A stretch of DNA of 17,310 nt from a virus (taxonomy: Duplodnaviria > Heunggongvirae > Uroviricota > Caudoviricetes). The notes beneath the pieces are model-generated. The model had not been told where the DNA came from and searched no databases. It worked only from the letters and a program-made list of their open reading frames with translations. Positions 7,321 to 17,310 of this stretch are shown here, piece by piece (position 1 is the stretch's first letter; every line of letters starts with the position of its first letter). The position numbers and the translations under genes are program-made. The stretch is from IMG/VR virus record IMGVR_UViG_2563366958_000013; one strand, 5' to 3'.

Positions 7321-8064
7321 ATGACACAGACAGAATCAGCGATTCTGGCGCACGCCCGGCGATGTGCGCCAGCGGAGTCGTGCGGCTTCGTGGTAAGCAC
7401 GCCGGAGGGGGAAAGATATTTCCCCTGCGTGAATATCTCCGGTGAGCCGGAGGCGTATTTCCGTATGTCGCCGGAAGACTGGCTGCAGGCAGAAATGCAG
7501 GGTGAGATTGTGGCGCTGGTCCACAGCCACCCCGGTGGCCTGCCCTGGCTGAGTGAGGCCGACCGGCGGCTGCAGGTGCAGAGTGATTTGCCGTGGTGGC
7601 TGGTCTGCCGGGGGACGATTCATAAGTTCCGCTGTGTGCCGCATCTCACCGGGCGGCGCTTTGAGCACGGTGTGACGGACTGTTACACACTGTTCCGGGA
7701 TGCTTATCATCTGGCGGGGATTGAGATGCCGGACTTTCATCGTGAGGATGACTGGTGGCGTAACGGCCAGAATCTCTATCTGGATAATCTGGAGGCGACG
7801 GGGCTGTATCAGGTGCCGTTGTCAGCGGCACAGCCGGGCGATGTGCTGCTGTGCTGTTTTGGTTCATCGGTGCCGAATCACGCCGCAATTTACTGCGGCG
7901 ACGGCGAGCTGCTGCACCATATTCCTGAACAACTGAGCAAACGAGAGAGGTACACCGACAAATGGCAGCGACGCACACACTCCCTCTGGCGTCACCGGGC
8001 ATGGCGCGCATCTGCCTTTACGGGGATTTACAACGATTTGGTCGCCGCATCGACCTTCGTGTGA
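7321..8064 (+). CDS. K: tail tip assembly protein K (JAB/MPN-like plus NlpC/P60-like domains)
   Basis: 247-aa product MTQTESAILAHARRCAPAESCGFVV...HSHPGG...VTDCYTLFRDAYH... matches lambda gpK. The HSHPGG (JAMM-like) and DCYTLF (NlpC/P60 Cys) motifs are visible in the sequence. Confidence 0.88.
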   Translation: MTQTESAILAHARRCAPAESCGFVVSTPEGERYFPCVNISGEPEAYFRMSPEDWLQAEMQGEIVALVHSHPGGLPWLSEADRRLQVQSDLPWWLVCRGTIHKFRCVPHLTGRRFEHGVTDCYTLFRDAYHLAGIEMPDFHREDDWWRNGQNLYLDNLEATGLYQVPLSAAQPGDVLLCCFGSSVPNHAAIYCGDGELLHHIPEQLSKRERYTDKWQRRTHSLWRHRAWRASAFTGIYNDLVAASTFV

Positions 8065-8693: not shown

Positions 8694-11600
8694 ATGGGTA
8701 AAGGAAGCAGTAAGGGGCATACCCCGCGCGAAGCGAAGGACAACCTGAAGTCCACGCAGTTGCTGAGTGTGATCGATGCCATCAGCGAAGGGCCGGTTGA
8801 AGGTCCGGTGGATGGATTAAAAAGCGTGCTGCTGAACAGTACGCCGGTGCTGGACACTGAGGGGAATACCAACATCTCCGGTGTCACGGTGGTGTTCCGT
8901 GCCGGTGAGCAGGAGCAGACACCGCCGGAGGGGTTTGAATCCTCCGGCTCCGAGACGGTGCTGGGTACGGAAGTGAAATATGACACGCCGATCACCCGCA
9001 CCATTACGTCTGCAAACATCGACCGTCTGCGCTTTACCTTCGGTGTACAGGCACTGGTGGAAACCACCTCAAAGGGTGACAGGAATCCGTCGGAAGTCCG
9101 TCTGCTGGTTCAGATACAACGTAACGGTGGCTGGGTGACGGAAAAAGACATCACCATTAAGGGCAAAACCACCTCGCAGTATCTGGCCTCGGTGGTGGTG
9201 GGTAACCTGCCGCCGCGCCCGTTTAATATCCGGATGCGCAGGATGACGCCGGACAGCACCACAGACCAGCTGCAGAACAAAACGCTCTGGTCGTCATACA
9301 CCGAAATCATCGATGTGAAACAGTGCTACCCGAACACGGCACTGGTCGGCGTGCAGGTGGACTCGGAGCAGTTCGGCAGCCAGCAGGTGAGCCGTAATTA
9401 TCATCTTCGCGGGCGCATTCTGCAGGTGCCGTCGAACTATAACCCGCAGACGCGGCAATACAGCGGTATCTGGGACGGAACGTTTAAGCCGGCATACAGC
9501 AACAACCCGGCCTGGTGTCTGTGGGATATGCTGACCCACCCGCGCTACGGCATGGGGAAACGTCTTGGTGCGGCGGATGTGGATAAATGGGCGCTGTATG
9601 TCATCGGCCAGTACTGCGACCAGTCAGTGCCGGACGGTTTTGGCGGCACGGAGCCGCGCATCACCTGTAATGCCTGGCTGACCACGCAGCGTAAGGCGTG
9701 GGATGTGCTCAGTGATTTCTGCTCGGCGATGCGCTGTATGCCGGTATGGAACGGGCAGACGCTGACGTTCGTGCAGGACCGACCATCAGATAAGGTGTGG
9801 ACCTATAACCGCAGTAATGTGGTGATGCCGGATGATGGCGCGCCGTTCCGCTACAGCTTCAGCGCCCTGAAGGACCGCCATAATGCCGTTGAGGTGAACT
9901 GGATTGACCCGAACAACGGCTGGGAGACGGCGACAGAGCTTGTTGAAGATACGCAGGCCATTGTCCGTTACGGTCGTAATGTCACGAAGATGGATGCCTT
10001 TGGCTGTACCAGCCGGGGGCAGGCACACCGCGCCGGGCTGTGGCTGATTAAAACTGAACTGCTGGAGACGCAGACCGTGGATTTCAGCGTGGGTGCTGAA
10101 GGGCTTCGCCATGTACCGGGCGATGTCATTGAAATCTGCGATGATGACTATGCCGGTATCAGCACCGGTGGTCGCGTGCTGGCGGTGAACAGCCAGACCC
10201 GGACGCTGACGCTCGACCGTGAAATCACGCTGCCATCCTCCGGTACCACGCTGATAAGCCTGGTTGACGGAAGTGGCAATCCGGTCAGCGTGGAGGTTCA
10301 GTCCGTCACCGACGGACTTAAGGTGAAAGTGAACCGGGTTCCTGACGGCGTTGCAGAATACAGTGTGTGGGGGCTGAAGTTGCCGACGTTGCGTCAGCGC
10401 CTGTTCCGCTGTGTGAGTATCCGGGAGAACGATGACGGTGCGTATGCCATCACCGCCGTGCAGCATGTACCGGAAAAAGAAGCCATCGTGGATAACGGGG
10501 CGCACTTTGACGGCGACCAGAGCGGCACGGTGAATGGTGTCACGCCGCCAGCGGTGCAGCACCTGACCGCCGAAGTCACCGCAGACAGCGGGGAATATCA
10601 GGTGCTGGCGCGCTGGGACACGCCGAAGGTGGTGAAGGGCGTGAGCTTCCTGCTCCGTCTGACCGTAACAGCGGATGACGGCAGTGAGCGGCTGGTCAGC
10701 ACGGCCCGGACGGCGGAAACCACTTACCGCTTCAGGCAGCTGGCGCTGGGGCGTTACACGCTGACGGTCCGGGCGGTAAATGCCCGGGGACAGCAGGGCG
10801 ATCCGGCGTCGGTATCGTTCCGGATTGCCGCACCGGCAGCACCGTCGAGGATTGAGCTGACGCCGGGCTATTTTCAGATAACCGCCACGCCGCATCTTGC
10901 CGTTTATGACCCGACGGTACAGTTTGAGTTCTGGTTCTCGGAAAAGCGGATTACCGATATCAGGCAGGTTGAAACCACAGCCCGCTATCTTGGTACGGCG
11001 CTGTACTGGATAGCCGCCAGTATCAATATCAAACCGGGCCATGATTATTACTTTTATATCCGCAGTGTGAACACCGTTGGCAAATCGGCATTCGTGGAGG
11101 CTGTCGGTCAGGCGAGCGATGATGCGGAAGGTTACCTGGATTTTTTCAAAGGCCAGATAACCGAATCCCATCTCGGCAAGGAGCTGCTGGAAAAAGTCGA
11201 GCTGACGGAGGATAACGCCAGCAGACTGGAGGAGTTTTCGAAAGAGTGGCAGGACGCTAACGATAAGTGGAATGCCATGTGGGGCGTCAAAATTGAGCAG
11301 ACCAAAGACGGCAAACATTATGTCGCGGGTATTGGCCTCAGCATGGAGGACACGGAAGAAGGCAAGCTGAGCCAGTTTCTGGTTGCCGCTAACCGTATCG
11401 CGTTTATTGACCCGGCAAACGGGAATGAAACGCCGATGTTTGTGGCGCAGGGCAATCAGATATTTATGAACGACGTGTTCCTGAAGCGCCTGACGGCCCC
11501 GACCATTACCAGTGGTGGAAATCCACCGGCATTTTCCCTGACATCAGACGGAAAGCTGACCGCTAAAAATGCGGATATCAGTGGCAGAGTGAATGCGAAC

Positions 11601-12176: not shown

Positions 12177-12776
12177 ATGCGTAAACTTTATGCCGCCATT
12201 TTGTCCGCAGCCATTTGTCTGGCCGTATCCGGTGCGCCTGCATGGGCATCTGAACATCAGTCCACGCTGAGCGCGGGGTATCTTCATGCCCGGACCAACG
12301 TTCCCGGCAGTGATGATCTGAACGGGATTAACGTGAAATACCGTTATGAGTTTACGGATACGCTGGGGCTGGTGACGTCATTCAGCTATGCAGGAGACAA
12401 GAATCGCCAGCTGACCCGTTACAGCGATACCAGCTGGCATGAAGATTCCGTGCGTAACCGCTGGTTCAGCGTGATGGCGGGGCCGTCTGTGCGCGTGAAT
12501 GAATGGTTCAGCGCGTATGCGATGGCGGGTATGGCTTACAGCCGTGTTTCGACTTTTTCCGGGGATTACCTTCGCGTAACTGACAACAAGGGGAAAACGC
12601 ACGATGTGCTGACCGGAAGTGATGACGGTCGCCACAGCAACACGTCTCTGGCGTGGGGGGCTGGCGTGCAGTTTAACCCGACCGAATCCGTGGCCATTGA
12701 TATTGCTTATGAAGGTTCTGGCAGTGGTGACTGGCGCACTGACGGTTTCATCGTGGGTGTCGGTTATAAATTCTGA
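12177..12776 (+). CDS. lom: outer membrane beta-barrel protein Lom (Ail/Lom/PagC/OmpX family), lysogenic-conversion moron
   Basis: 199-aa product MRKLYAAILSAAICLAVSGAPAWASEHQSTLSAGYLHARTNVPGSDDLNGINVKYRYEF...GFIVGVGYKF matches lambda Lom; signal peptide with AWA-SE cleavage context, C-terminal aromatic residue (F) typical of OMP barrels; RBS GAGAGG. Confidence 0.9.
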   Translation: MRKLYAAILSAAICLAVSGAPAWASEHQSTLSAGYLHARTNVPGSDDLNGINVKYRYEFTDTLGLVTSFSYAGDKNRQLTRYSDTSWHEDSVRNRWFSVMAGPSVRVNEWFSAYAMAGMAYSRVSTFSGDYLRVTDNKGKTHDVLTGSDDGRHSNTSLAWGAGVQFNPTESVAIDIAYEGSGSGDWRTDGFIVGVGYKF

Positions 12777-12840: not shown

Positions 12841-15237
12841 ATGGCAGTAAAGATTTCAGGTGTACTGAAAGACGGCACAGGAAAACCGGTACAGAACTGC
12901 TCAATCCAGCTGAAAGCAAAACGTAACAGCACCACGGTGGTAGTGAACACGCTGGCCTCAGAAAATCCGGATGAAGCCGGGCGTTACAGTATGGATGTTG
13001 AGTATGGCCAGTACAGCGTTATCCTGCTGGTTGAAGGTTTTTCGCCTTCACATGCCGGGACCATCACCGTGTATGAAGATTCTAAGCCGGGGACGCTGAA
13101 TGATTTTCTCGGTGCCATGACGGAAGATGATGTCATGCCGGAGGCATTGCGTCGTTTTGAGGAAATGGTGGAAGAAGCGGCACGCAACGCTGAAGCCGCC
13201 TCTCAGAGCGCAGCGGCGGCAAAGAAATCCGAAACTGCAGCGGCATCATCGAAGAACGCGGCGAAAACCTCAGAAACGAATGCAGCTAATAGTGCACAGG
13301 CGGCAGCGACCTCAAAGACTGCATCGGCAAACTCCGCGACAGCAGCCAAAAAATCAGAAACCAACGCGAAAAATAGCGAGACAGCCGCAAAGACGAGCGA
13401 AACCAACGCAAAGTCCAGCCAGACGGCAGCGAAAACCAGCGAAACGAATGCCAAAGCCAGTGAAACTGCGGCAAAAAACAGCCAGGTTGCAGCAGCCCAA
13501 AGCGAGAGCGCGGCAGCCGGTTCTGCGACTTCAGCAGCTGGATCAGCAACTGCTGCGGCTAACAGCCAGAAAGCTGCGAAGACGAGTGAAACTAACGCAA
13601 AGTCCAGCCAGACGGCAGCGAAGACCAGCGAAACGAATGCCAAAGCCAGCGAAACTGCGGCGAAAAACAGTCAGGATGCAGCAGCCCAAAGCGAGAGTGC
13701 TGCAGCTGGTTCTGCAAGCGCGGCGGCTGCTTCTGCCACTGCATCAGCCAACAGTCAAAAAGCAGCAAAAACCAGTGAAACCAATGCAAAGACAAGCGAG
13801 ACTGCAGCGGCGAACTCGGCGAAAGCATCGGCAGCAAGCCAGACAGCAGCTAAAGCAAGTGAAGACGCAGCCAGAGAGTATGCAAGTCAGGCAGCAGAGC
13901 CGTATAAATATGTCTTACAGCCACTGCCTGATGTGTGGATACCGTTTAACGATTCACTGGATATGATTACGGGCTTTTCGCCGTCATATAAAAAAATTGT
14001 TATTGGTGATGATGAAATAACGATGCCTGGCGACAAGGTTGTTAAGTTTAAACGCGCATCAACTGCCACATATATCAATAAATCAGGCGTATTTAGTGTT
14101 GCTAAAATTGATGAGCCACGATTTGAAAAAGAAGGTTTATTGATTGAAGGACAGCGCACTAACTATTTTGTTAAATCCAATACTCCCGCTGAATGGACGA
14201 GTACCAGCAATATCGATAAAACTAATAATGGTGTTGATGAATTTGGTTTTTCATATGCCAAAATGCGAACAAAAGATAATATGACAGGACAATCATCTGC
14301 ACTTAGTCTGCATACATGCAGTGCATCCCGGGGGATTGATGTTTGTGGCGATAATAAGTATTGCACTGTTTCATGCAGGGTTAAAGCTCCTGATGGTCTT
14401 CGTTGTCGTTTGCGTTTTGAAAAATACGATGGGTCGGTTTATACATTTTTAGGAGATGCTTATTTAACTTTCGGAACTCTGATAATAGAAAAAACTGGCG
14501 GAGCAGCCAATAGAATAGCAGCTACTGCAACTAAAGATCCGGTTACAGGGTGGATTTTCTATGAGGCAACTATAGAAGCTGTTGAAGGTGAAACCTTAAT
14601 TGGCGCAATGATTCAGTATGCGCCGAAAAAAGGTGGTATAACTGAAGCGGGAGATTATATTTACCTTGCAACACCACAATTTGAAAACGGCGGATGTGCT
14701 TCATCTTTTGTTATTACGACAACTGCACCCGCAACCCGCTCCAGTGATATGGTGACGATCCCAACTGAAAATAATATCTATAATAGACCGCTTACGTGTC
14801 TTGTCGAGGTTAATAGAAATTGGGGCGATATTCCTCCTAATGTAGCACCGCGTATTTTTGATTTTTCTGGTGTGCCACCTATTGAGTCAATTACATACGC
14901 TTTTAACACAACTGAGAAATATTACGGTCAGCTTTATATGCAAACTTATAAAGCGTCGACAAGTACTTACGTTTCTAGTGTGTTTGCTGGTCGAGCTGAT
15001 GTTCGAAAATTCATTGGTGGTTTTAATATTTATTCTGATGGTACTAAACGAGTAGTTTCTAACGGTGAGGCTACTAAAACTATGAAAACGGAGTGGACGG
15101 GCGTAAAAACACGGACCTTTATTCGAATTGGAGGTCAAGCCACATCGGGAACTCGTCATCTATTCGGCCATTTGAGAAATCTTCGTCTCTGGCATAAAGA
15201 ATTAACTGATGCGCAAATGGGGGAGAGTATTAAATGA
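12841..15237 (+). CDS. stf: side tail fiber protein, chimeric: lambda Stf-like N-terminus, Ala/Ser/Thr-rich repeat shaft, non-lambda C-terminal domain with a LamG/ConA-like signature
   Basis: 798-aa ORF; N-terminus MAVKISGVLKDGTGKPVQNCSIQLKAKRNSTTVVVNT...SKPGTLNDFLGAMTEDDVMPEALRRFEEMVEEAARNAEAA matches lambda Stf as I recall it. The central region is tandem repeats (AAKTSETNAKSSQT...). The C-terminal ~440 aa are AT-rich DNA and end ...GHLRNLRLWHKELTDAQMGESIK, which resembles the terminal motif of Laminin_G_3/ConA-like jelly-roll domains. RBS GGGGGGA upstream. Confidence 0.8.
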   Translation: MAVKISGVLKDGTGKPVQNCSIQLKAKRNSTTVVVNTLASENPDEAGRYSMDVEYGQYSVILLVEGFSPSHAGTITVYEDSKPGTLNDFLGAMTEDDVMPEALRRFEEMVEEAARNAEAASQSAAAAKKSETAAASSKNAAKTSETNAANSAQAAATSKTASANSATAAKKSETNAKNSETAAKTSETNAKSSQTAAKTSETNAKASETAAKNSQVAAAQSESAAAGSATSAAGSATAAANSQKAAKTSETNAKSSQTAAKTSETNAKASETAAKNSQDAAAQSESAAAGSASAAAASATASANSQKAAKTSETNAKTSETAAANSAKASAASQTAAKASEDAAREYASQAAEPYKYVLQPLPDVWIPFNDSLDMITGFSPSYKKIVIGDDEITMPGDKVVKFKRASTATYINKSGVFSVAKIDEPRFEKEGLLIEGQRTNYFVKSNTPAEWTSTSNIDKTNNGVDEFGFSYAKMRTKDNMTGQSSALSLHTCSASRGIDVCGDNKYCTVSCRVKAPDGLRCRLRFEKYDGSVYTFLGDAYLTFGTLIIEKTGGAANRIAATATKDPVTGWIFYEATIEAVEGETLIGAMIQYAPKKGGITEAGDYIYLATPQFENGGCASSFVITTTAPATRSSDMVTIPTENNIYNRPLTCLVEVNRNWGDIPPNVAPRIFDFSGVPPIESITYAFNTTEKYYGQLYMQTYKASTSTYVSSVFAGRADVRKFIGGFNIYSDGTKRVVSNGEATKTMKTEWTGVKTRTFIRIGGQATSGTRHLFGHLRNLRLWHKELTDAQMGESIK
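13387..13764 (+). repeat. two tandem ~189-bp (63-codon) imperfect direct repeats inside stf, with a partial third copy starting at 13765
   Basis: Unit beginning gc(a/g)aagacgag(c/t)gaaac(c/t)aacgcaaagtccagccagacggcagcgaa at 13387 recurs at 13576 with about 90% identity; protein repeat AAKTSETNAKSSQTAAKTSETNAKASETAAKNSQ(V/D)AAAQSESAAAGSA... Shorter ~14-codon sub-repeats extend from ~13200 to ~13860. Confidence 0.8.
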
Positions 15238-15381
15238 AAGATTTAACACTCAAATTTGCAGACAGGGCCGACTTTTCGGCCTTTATGGAGAGCATTGGCT
15301 ATTATGATGACGAGTCGATGCAGGATGATATTCTTATTGACGTGATAGGTAATGTGTACAAAGAAACCGGAGAACTTACTG

Positions 15382-15390
15382 AAGATGGCG
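15382..15390. repeat. IS1 target site duplication, left copy (AAGATGGCG)
   Basis: 9 bp immediately 5' of IS1 IRL, identical to 16159-16167. Confidence 0.9.
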
Positions 15391-15445
15391 GGTGATGCTG
15401 CCAACTTACTGATTTAGTGTATGATGGTGTTTTTGAGGTGCTCCA

Positions 15446-15721
15446 GTGGCTTCTGTTTCTATCAGCTGTCCCTCCTGTTCAGCTACTGACGGGGTGGTGC
15501 GTAACGGCAAAAGCACCGCCGGACATCAGCGCTATCTCTGCTCTCACTGCCGTAAAACATGGCAACTGCAGTTCACTTACACCGCTTCTCAACCCGGTAC
15601 GCACCAGAAAATCATTGATATGGCCATGAATGGCGTTGGATGCCGGGCAACAGCCCGCATTATGGGCGTTGGCCTCAACACGATTTTACGTCACTTAAAA
15701 AACTCAGGCCGCAGTCGGTAA
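15446..15721 (+). CDS. insA: IS1 protein InsA (transposition inhibitor / N-terminal part of InsAB' transposase)
   Basis: 91-aa product [91 protein letters not shown], the IS1 InsA sequence with zinc-finger Cys motif; begins at IS1 nt 56. Confidence 0.95.
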
Positions 15722-16143
15722 CCTCGCGCATACAGCCGGGCAGTGACGTCATCGTCTGCGCGGAAATGGACGAACAGTGGGGCTATGTCGGGGCTAAATC
15801 GCGCCAGCGCTGGCTGTTTTACGCGTATGACAGGCTCCGGAAGACGGTTGTTGCGCACGTATTCGGTGAACGCACTATGGCGACGCTGGGGCGTCTTATG
15901 AGCCTGCTGTCACCCTTTGACGTGGTGATATGGATGACGGATGGCTGGCCGCTGTATGAATCCCGCCTGAAGGGAAAGCTGCACGTAATCAGCAAGCGAT
16001 ATACGCAGCGAATTGAGCGGCATAACCTGAATCTGAGGCAGCACCTGGCACGGCTGGGACGGAAGTCGCTGTCGTTCTCAAAATCGGTGGAGCTGCATGA
16101 CAAAGTCATCGGGCATTATCTGAACATAAAACACTATCAATAA
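15640..16143 (+). CDS. insB: IS1 InsB' reading frame; expressed as InsAB' transposase by -1 frameshift at the A6C motif (15697-15703)
   Basis: -1 frame ORF relative to insA, product ...[55 protein letters not shown]... matches IS1 InsB; the ORF-track start at 15640 is the frame opening, not necessarily a used start; slippery TTAAAAAACTC present. Confidence 0.9.
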
Positions 16144-16158
16144 GTTGGAGTCATTACC

Positions 16159-16167
16159 AAGATGGCG
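16159..16167. repeat. IS1 target site duplication, right copy (AAGATGGCG)
   Basis: 9 bp immediately 3' of IS1 IRR, identical to 15382-15390. Confidence 0.9.
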
Positions 16168-16301
16168 AGCCGGTATGTGTTAAGGAGGACGGATATTTTG
16201 TAAATGTGCGCATCATTAATGATTCGCAAATATCGTCATTATTCGATGAATACGTGGTTGCTGTTGAGCATCAACTCCGTAGCTGGATGTGAGGAAGAAA
16301 A

Positions 16302-17006
16302 ATGGCTACATCGACAGTAATTCCTGATGACATCAAAACGCTAAAGGGAGATGTCAGTAAGGCAAAGGAAGATATTTCCTCAATTAACGTAAAAGTATCA
16401 ACGCTTCAGACTGATATGGACAGTGCAAAGCAGGATATCAGTACCAGATACACAAAAACAGAAGTGGATAATAAGCTGAAAAACAAAGTGGAAGTGAACG
16501 ATCTGGAAAGTGGTCGTTATGGCGGAGATTTTTACCCGCTGACTGGCCGTGAAGCGTTTTATTTATGGGGATTGGGCACAACTACAGCGGCGGCAAATCT
16601 TTATCTTAATCCTGACCCTGCAATTTCGTCTGTGCTGCGGTCAACATCGTCTATCCGCTATAAACATTCAGTAGAGACGATAGATTCAGAGCACGCCGAT
16701 CTCATTTTCAGGATGCGCCCTGTGTGGTACAGGTCGCAATGCGAAAATGACAGGCGTGACTGGGGATTCTATGGATTGATTGCCGAGGAAGTAGGAGAAA
16801 TTGCCCCTCAGTTTGTTCACTGGCGACCAGCCAACGAAGATGATGCACCGGAAACCATTTCCAGCAATGGCCTTGTTGCCGAAGGTGTAATGTACGAACG
16901 TCTGGTTGTTCCACTGATTCACCATATCCAGAAACTGACTGAAAGAGTTGATGAACTTGAGTCAGAATTGAAGTTGTTATCAACTTCCCAAAGCGATATC
17001 GGATAA
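16302..17006 (+). CDS. tail-fiber-like protein: N-terminal coiled-coil segment plus C-terminal intramolecular chaperone (peptidase S74-like) domain
   Basis: 234-aa ORF with RBS GAGGAAG. N-terminus has heptad-like pattern (DIKTLKGDVSKAKEDISSINVKVSTLQTDMDSAKQDIS). C-terminal half carries SSIRYKHSVETID...ADLIFRMRPVWYRSQ...DWGFYGLIAEEVGEIAPQFV, which fits the S74 chaperone consensus as I recall it (SDxRxKxNI...L.PV.Y.W...GFIAQEV.EV.PE.V). Motif-level call only. Confidence 0.5.
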   Translation: MATSTVIPDDIKTLKGDVSKAKEDISSINVKVSTLQTDMDSAKQDISTRYTKTEVDNKLKNKVEVNDLESGRYGGDFYPLTGREAFYLWGLGTTTAAANLYLNPDPAISSVLRSTSSIRYKHSVETIDSEHADLIFRMRPVWYRSQCENDRRDWGFYGLIAEEVGEIAPQFVHWRPANEDDAPETISSNGLVAEGVMYERLVVPLIHHIQKLTERVDELESELKLLSTSQSDIG

Positions 17007-17016
17007 AGGAGGAGTA

Positions 17017-17310
17017 ATGGATATAACACCTTTTCTTCATGCGCTTTGTGCTGTGGCTGCGCAGGTAATGATTGGTCTTTTTGCCGGAAACTGGGTTTAC
17101 GGGGCGATAGCCGGTTGTACGTTCTTCATTGCGCGTGAACACACCCAGGCAGAATATCGCTGGATTGAAATGTTCGGGCATGGCAAGTGGATTAACATGC
17201 CGTGGTGGGGCGGTTTTGATCCGCGTGTTTGGGATGTGGCAAGCCTGATAGATTTTGCTGTGCCGGTGGTGGCGTGTCTGCTGGTCTGGCTGTTGGTTAA
17301 TCGTGGGTGA
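17017..17310 (+). CDS. small hydrophobic (predicted inner-membrane) protein, unknown function
   Basis: 97-aa ORF with strong RBS AAGGAGG 8 nt upstream; two long hydrophobic stretches (FLHALCAVAAQVMIGLFAGNWVYGAIAGCTFFIA and LIDFAVPVVACLLVWLLV) with a Trp-rich loop; stop TGA is the last codon of the window. Confidence 0.5.
   Translation: MDITPFLHALCAVAAQVMIGLFAGNWVYGAIAGCTFFIAREHTQAEYRWIEMFGHGKWINMPWWGGFDPRVWDVASLIDFAVPVVACLLVWLLVNRG

Follow-up and report, generated by a model that had tools for sequence, protein, structure and literature searches.

A complete IS1 element with a 9-bp target duplication in a 93-aa gene beside stf of a lambdoid Escherichia coli prophage

The DLP12 prophage of Escherichia coli K-12 carries an IS5 element in nmpC, and its structural genes are absent. 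When IS1 inserts into operons that are not antiterminated, it is classically strongly polar in both orientations. The hallmarks of IS1 are a length of 768 bp, inverted repeats (IRs), the A6C motif, the InsAB' fusion protein, and an 8-9 bp duplication of the target (PMC12428005). Copies of the IS1A/IS1E type are responsible for >99.9% of IS1 transposition in K-12, and the promoter of the element is described as a very weak one that InsA represses (PMC12428005). In bacteriophage lambda, the lom-stf-tfa region is dispensable for plaque formation (PMC10695390).

Here we describe a copy of IS1 that interrupts a small gene adjacent to the side tail fiber gene of a lambdoid prophage. The DNA that was analyzed, referred to below as the window, is a viral sequence of 17310 bases. 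We are confident that the IS1 arrived by simple transposition, with duplication of 9 bp of the target, in a lambdoid prophage at the argU/DLP12 site of E. coli. IS1 is an archetypal and well-known element, and the insertion is an ordinary one that is already present in public assemblies.

The IS1 element and its empty site

The features of the locus are collected in Table 1. The element is oriented in the same direction as the tail genes. It starts with GGTGATGCTGCCAACTTACTGAT, finishes with ATCAATAAGTTGGAGTCATTACC, and is bounded by imperfect terminal inverted repeats of 23 bp each (IRL, GGTGATGCTGCC...; IRR, ...GGAGTCATTACC), which were determined with a repeat finder to be complementary at 18/23 positions. 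The insB' frame overlaps insA in the -1 frame, and the slippery A6C motif is located near the end of insA. A -1 shift at this motif yields the 232-aa InsAB' protein, which scored 245 bits against the NCBIfam equivalog model NF033558 ("IS1 family transposase", cutoff of 100 bits) and also matched the Zn domain model NF050000. For the identical gene in two of the carrier loci (L003 and L004), matches were obtained to PF03811 and PF12759 (Zn_ribbon_InsA / HTH_Tnp_IS1) and to PF03400 (DDE_Tnp_IS1). InsAB' belongs to the IS1-family DDE transposases and bears a zinc ribbon and an HTH domain at its N-terminus. The location of the promoter match at the left end fits that of PIS1 (PMC12428005).

Table 1. 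Coordinates of the IS1 insertion and of the surrounding genes in the window
Feature	Position	Strand	Evidence or remark
stf, side tail fiber, 798 aa, intact, directly upstream	12841..15237	+	PF08400, 229.8 bits; phrog_1419
Upstream (5') portion of the interrupted gene, reading as a 53-aa ORF whose ATG overlaps the stf stop (ATGA)	15234..15395	+	
Target-site duplication (9 bp), left copy, AAGATGGCG	15382..15390	.	single copy in the SCU-172 and PhiR49_1 empty site
IS1, complete, 768 bp, insA and insB'	15391..16158	+	767/768 identical to K-12 IS1A
IRL, left terminal inverted repeat	15391..15413	+	repeat finder; 23 nt, 78% complementary to IRR
Sigma-70-like promoter match, CTGCCA-16-TATGAT, partly over IRL	15398..15425	+	promoter scan
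insA, 91 aa, GTG start; repressor, also the N-terminal portion of the transposase	15446..15721	+	intact
insB' frame, DDE catalytic part, expressed solely as the 232-aa InsAB' fusion	15640..16143	+	intact
A6C (AAAAAAC), site of -1 programmed frameshifting	15697..15703	+	role: PMC12428005
IRR, right terminal inverted repeat	16136..16158	+	repeat finder
Target-site duplication (9 bp), right copy, AAGATGGCG	16159..16167	.	script and repeat finder
Orphaned 3' part of the interrupted gene, 41 codons and stop	16168..16292	+	
234-aa fiber-like protein, C-terminal Peptidase_S74 chaperone, intact, own ribosome-binding site	16302..17006	+	
97-aa hydrophobic protein, phrog_1443, intact, own ribosome-binding site	17017..17310	+	

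The copy of IS1A from K-12 used for comparison is found at NC_000913.3:19796-20563. The sole mismatch between the two elements is at position 444, where a G in place of a T changes residue 65 of InsB' from Ser to Arg. The element possesses every sequence-level property of IS1 for which we looked, as was anticipated in the first-pass annotation, where a complete 768-bp IS1 with both inverted repeats, insA/insB, and the A6C motif had been described. All of its sequence features are intact, and it may be competent for transposition.

The 9-mer AAGATGGCG occurs exactly twice in the window, each time abutting one end of the IS1, and the match between the two flanks ends at the 10th base. The pair was returned by the repeat finder as a 9-nt direct repeat with a spacing of 777. 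The probability of a chance 9/9 match is 4^-9 (~4e-6), and this length corresponds to the direct target duplication of 8 or 9 bp that is made by IS1.

When the two flanks of the insertion (14400-15390 and 16168-17310) are joined, they are identical at 2134/2134 positions to the chromosome of E. coli SCU-172 (NZ_CP054353.1:1408174-1410307). An exact copy of the 60-nt empty site is also present in phage PhiR49_1, the host of which is given as ECOR13 in the GenBank record. No paper describing PhiR49_1 was found, but a panel of related PhiR phages is employed in bioRxiv 10.1101/2025.11.03.685801. A megablast search with 14400-17310 as the query against 5426 RefSeq complete E. coli genomes demonstrated that the insertion is carried by 0/5426 of these genomes and that the two flanks are adjacent in many of them (74% of the query covered over a span of 2134 bp). 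It had previously been proposed that identical 9-bp repeats flank the element, that it was inserted by simple transposition with no later rearrangement, and that the empty site should be sought in related prophages. These proposals are supported by the abutting copies of AAGATGGCG, by the empty sites of SCU-172 and PhiR49_1, in which the 9-mer is single, and by the colinearity of the flanks with the empty site.

From established IS1 biology, the InsAB' transposase would be produced via -1 ribosomal frameshifting at A6C and would join both ends of the IS1 to cuts staggered by 9 bp in the target AAGATGGCG. The 9-bp direct repeats would then arise as the gaps are repaired. We infer this mechanism for the present copy by carrying it over from what is known of IS1.

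The 10-nt sequence at 15373-15382 (AACTTACTGA) is the same, in the same orientation, as IRL positions 13-22 (15403-15412) and overlaps the target duplication by one base. There are three 10-mers in the IS-free window that are common to the IS1 ends, and ~1.3% of positions are found within 30 nt of one. The IRL-like 10-mer beside the target is a weak, post hoc signal.

The prophage, the interrupted gene, and its neighbors

In the carrier loci, the genes downstream of the prophage are ompT, envY, ybcH, and nfrA. In strains SCU-172 and ST3, the prophage starts at intD beside a tRNA-Arg gene. The general architecture of the prophage is intD/argU ... quuD-porin-lysis-head-tail-stf ... ompT. Since intD is located by tRNA-Arg and the other end is followed by ompT-envY-ybcH-nfrA, the site of integration is argU/DLP12. 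The host is E. coli and the prophage is lambda-like. The earlier suggestion of an E. coli or Shigella-type host can therefore be narrowed to E. coli, based on the four downstream genes and on the fact that all of the named carriers are E. coli.

The window and SCU-172, the closest relative with an empty site, are 99.8% identical over 15390 nt in a gap-free alignment. In SCU-172, ~15 kb of early genes, from yfdQ to quuD, are gone. An IS1 at 15043-15810 of this locus (L014) is 100% identical to that of the window and has the same orientation, and it is found without a target duplication because its flanks differ. The early region that is missing from SCU-172 is kept in ST3 (L015, NZ_CP121087.1, 29817-39357). 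Judging from these sequences, the early genes of SCU-172 seem to have been deleted through the action of IS1. If the genome from which the window originates shares this lesion, the prophage would be unable to express its late genes at all. If that genome holds both copies of IS1, they would form direct repeats that bracket ~27 kb of late genes, and the prophage would be an intermediate caught en route to a DLP12-like remnant.

The insertion truncates a 93-aa ORF, as had been noted for a small ORF in the first-pass annotation, to 52 native residues followed by GG and a stop codon that are supplied by IRL. The restored ORF (15234-15390 joined to 16168-16292) is identical to WP_001522483.1. The 3' part that is lost contains the most conserved segment of the protein, GYFVNVRIIND...RxWM. 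The ORF family was found, beside genes of the stf type, in 988/5426 complete E. coli genomes (~18%) and is uninterrupted in 985 of the 988, and thus the intact form is the norm. Since the conserved C-terminal 41 residues are replaced by Gly-Gly-stop, the insertion is most likely a null allele of the 93-aa gene.

The 93-aa protein belongs to phrog_1361, which is labeled "unknown function" in PHROGs, and sequence and profile searches of Pfam, NCBIfam, and the PDB returned no match. AF2 gave a low-confidence model (pLDDT 63.6), for which Foldseek against BFVD found uncharacterized phage proteins only. A word-indexed homologue search returned near-identical Escherichia proteins only. With an exhaustive HMMER search, the family was resolved into 49 clusters at 50% identity, made up of small stand-alone relatives, and no informative fusions were found among them. 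Similarity to the Tfa/gp38-type chaperones was not found in Pfam, NCBIfam, the PDB, PHROGs, or with Foldseek, and the identification of this ORF as Tfa was dropped for lack of a sequence or fold match to these chaperones. We tentatively suggest, while considering it doubtful, that phrog_1361 might be an assembly or attachment factor of the side tail fiber that links Stf to the S74-bearing 234-aa fiber. If this suggestion is true, the lineage with the IS1 would be a ready-made natural knockout.

The gene order upstream of the insertion is J, Lom, and Stf, and Stf contains the PF08400 prophage tail fiber N-terminal domain. Residues 116-172 of the 234-aa ORF match PF13884 (Peptidase_S74) with 27.3 bits (cutoff of 22), as a C-terminal domain. 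These two assignments bear out the earlier placement of the insertion in the fiber module. The 234-aa ORF also matches the C-terminus of an L-shaped tail fiber (PDB 8hqz_d, E value of 4.9e-7); the protein resembles the C-terminal 240 residues of long fibers (phrog_3299), and its N-terminal part is coiled-coil-like. The motif TSSIRYK in this ORF aligns to TSGIEYK of the L-shaped tail fiber (PDB 8hqz). If the 234-aa protein is autocleaved in the manner of its relatives, the mature form would be ~115 aa, an unusually short piece of fiber. For the 97-aa ORF at 17017-17310, no match was found in Pfam or NCBIfam. Three hydrophobic segments are apparent by eye, and the last bases of the window are those of its stop codon. 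This protein may be a membrane protein or a moron that closes the fiber module. The stf gene and the two downstream genes are left structurally untouched by the IS1.

Other features of the tail region were noted. Within stf there is an internal repeat of ~249 nt (13372-13620 and 13561-13809, offset by 189 nt) that is 83.5% identical, as found in secondary BLAST alignments. The lom gene is intact in the window (199-aa Ail/Lom, 12177-12776), is annotated in two pieces in PhiR49_1 (L002, 3328-3941), and is not called in CP164702.1 (L003, 6876-7608). A 510-aa ORF is found antisense within J on the minus strand (9786-11318) and is most likely a compositional by-product.

It had been proposed that the IS1 probably exerts polarity on the 234-aa and 97-aa genes and that, if these encode fiber accessory functions, particles lacking functional side fibers may be produced. 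No + strand intrinsic terminator was found within the IS1, and no hybrid promoter was found that spans its right junction. There are ~580 untranslated nt between the insA stop codon and the next start codon, and a crude C/G scan for Rho-loading regions indicated that this segment is G-rich. The downstream effect, if any, would be Rho-dependent polarity over these ~580 nt. The intact form of the prophage, from strain ST3, has the full early region, and its porin, lysis, head, and tail genes are preceded by the gene for QuuD, an antiterminator of the Q family. Transcription of the late genes that is antiterminated by QuuD would be expected to largely suppress polarity (for Q antitermination, see PMC12360218), and strong polarity during induction would be unlikely. 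Shine-Dalgarno sequences precede both the 234-aa and the 97-aa genes. Given QuuD, these separate ribosome-binding sites, the dispensability of lom-stf-tfa, and the loss of the early region in a close relative, polarity on the two genes and the production of fiber-less particles are doubtful. Some polarity from the IS1 is conceivable at this locus. We infer that the expected phenotype is a loss of the 93-aa function only, and not of the whole fiber module.

Origin of the allele and alternative explanations

The exact 53-aa truncated product, which owes its existence solely to this insertion, was found on 121 public E. coli contigs and in 158 collection blocks, and the named copies are all labeled as E. 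coli (9 named among the 11 matches listed). Both junctions, together with an identical IS1, are present in CP164702.1 (5.16 Mb), OZ039802.1 (5.20 Mb), and JAFMTP010000038.1 (a 39-kb contig). The left junction is also present in KE137066.1 and in several gut-metagenome scaffolds. From ~13490 to 17310, two of the carriers (L004 and L006) are identical to the window, as are two others (L007 and L009) as far as they reach. The differences between the window and the carriers are clustered in K (7395-7689), J (9119-10904), lom (12531-12572), and stf (13290-13489). This clustering indicates that patches were acquired by recombination after the insertion, probably from other lambdoid prophages.

The simplest reading of these sequences is that the insertion was one event that has been inherited vertically in a lineage of E. 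coli, and that recombination subsequently altered other segments of the prophage in patches. The single origin is deduced from the identical junctions and orientation rather than from a strain phylogeny. With the same junctions and IS1 accompanied by different patches in J and K, the insertion is an allele of a lineage and not a private new event. The description of the insertion as recent in the first-pass annotation holds insofar as the locus shows no decay after the event, but not in the sense of a private new event, given that the allele is inherited and found on 121 contigs.

It could be argued that the insertion has been kept because it confers an advantage on the host, either by disabling a fiber accessory gene or by altering the expression of the downstream 234-aa and 97-aa genes in the lysogen via read-out from the weak IS1 promoter. 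The allele is fairly common (121 contigs with the truncated product, compared with 704 with the exact intact 93-aa protein), and no + strand intrinsic terminator separates the downstream genes from the IS1 promoter. However, clonal expansion and sampling account equally well for this frequency, no promoter-like site was found across the right junction, and the IS1 promoter is extremely weak and InsA-repressed (PMC12428005). We consider such an advantage to be unlikely.

Recurrent and independent insertions at a hotspot would also explain why there are multiple carriers. It is known that IS1 has regional preferences. At this locus, the IRL-like 10-mer AACTTACTGA directly adjoins the target, and the AT content of the flanks is high (57-60%, compared with 45.6% for the window). 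However, the position, the orientation, and the sequence of the IS1 are the same in every carrier examined, and the sequence adjoining the element is identical in all of the carriers that were compared. A true hotspot should give more insertions, and in both orientations, whereas 985/988 of the genomes with the ORF family are uninterrupted and the insertion is found in 0/5426. Repeated insertion is very improbable, and a single event remains the preferred explanation.

An IS1-mediated adjacent deletion or inversion, recombination between two copies of IS1, or the end of a composite transposon could likewise place an IS1 at this position. The early region of SCU-172, from the same prophage lineage, is replaced by an IS1 without a target duplication. 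At the present site, the IS-free sequence aligns colinearly with the flanks over 2134/2134 positions, and both copies of the 9-mer are preserved. Matching repeats would not survive if a segment had been deleted or inverted or if two copies of IS1 had recombined, and so rearrangement is refuted here. The colinear flanks and the exact empty site exclude these three events at 15382-16167, and we regard this alternative as extremely improbable.

The misplacement of a multicopy IS1 by an assembler is of negligible probability. Copies of IS1 are numerous in E. coli (many genomes with at least 40 matching pieces), and short-read contigs do break at the junction (L007-L012 terminate within IRL). However, the 9-mer that is found once in the empty site is perfectly duplicated here, a hallmark specific to genuine transposition. 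Both junctions and the full IS1 are contained in two chromosome-sized records and a 39-kb contig, and independent metagenome scaffolds again contain the left junction. The preferred explanation for the IS1 at this site is simple transposition accompanied by duplication of 9 bp of the target.

Comparison with known systems

The analysis identifies a pseudogenized accessory gene of a prophage, which is of little import beyond annotation. The two junction sequences and the diagnostic 53-aa product provide a clean marker for the lineage. The sole wider use of the allele would be as a natural knockout for the role of the conserved 93-aa gene beside stf.

The element itself is like IS1A and IS1E of K-12 in its length of 768 bp, its IRL and IRR, insA, insB', the A6C motif, and the 9-bp target duplication. 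It differs from these copies at position 444 (G for T; Arg65 rather than Ser) and in its genomic location.

The lesion is similar to the stf frameshift of laboratory lambda, a natural loss of the side tail fibers, in that both affect the lom-stf-tfa region, a non-essential part of lambda-like tail modules. In the prophage described here, however, stf is intact, and the lesion is in the downstream 93-aa gene. Relative to lambda, a complete tfa is replaced in this module by the 234-aa fiber gene with the S74 chaperone and by the 97-aa membrane-like gene.

The locus provides a further example of the erosion of an argU/DLP12-site prophage by IS1. The resemblance to the decay of prophages at the DLP12 site is that the site of integration is the same and that IS1 is eroding this prophage lineage too. 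The difference is that the head and tail genes of the window are all intact and that a single 93-aa accessory ORF is interrupted.
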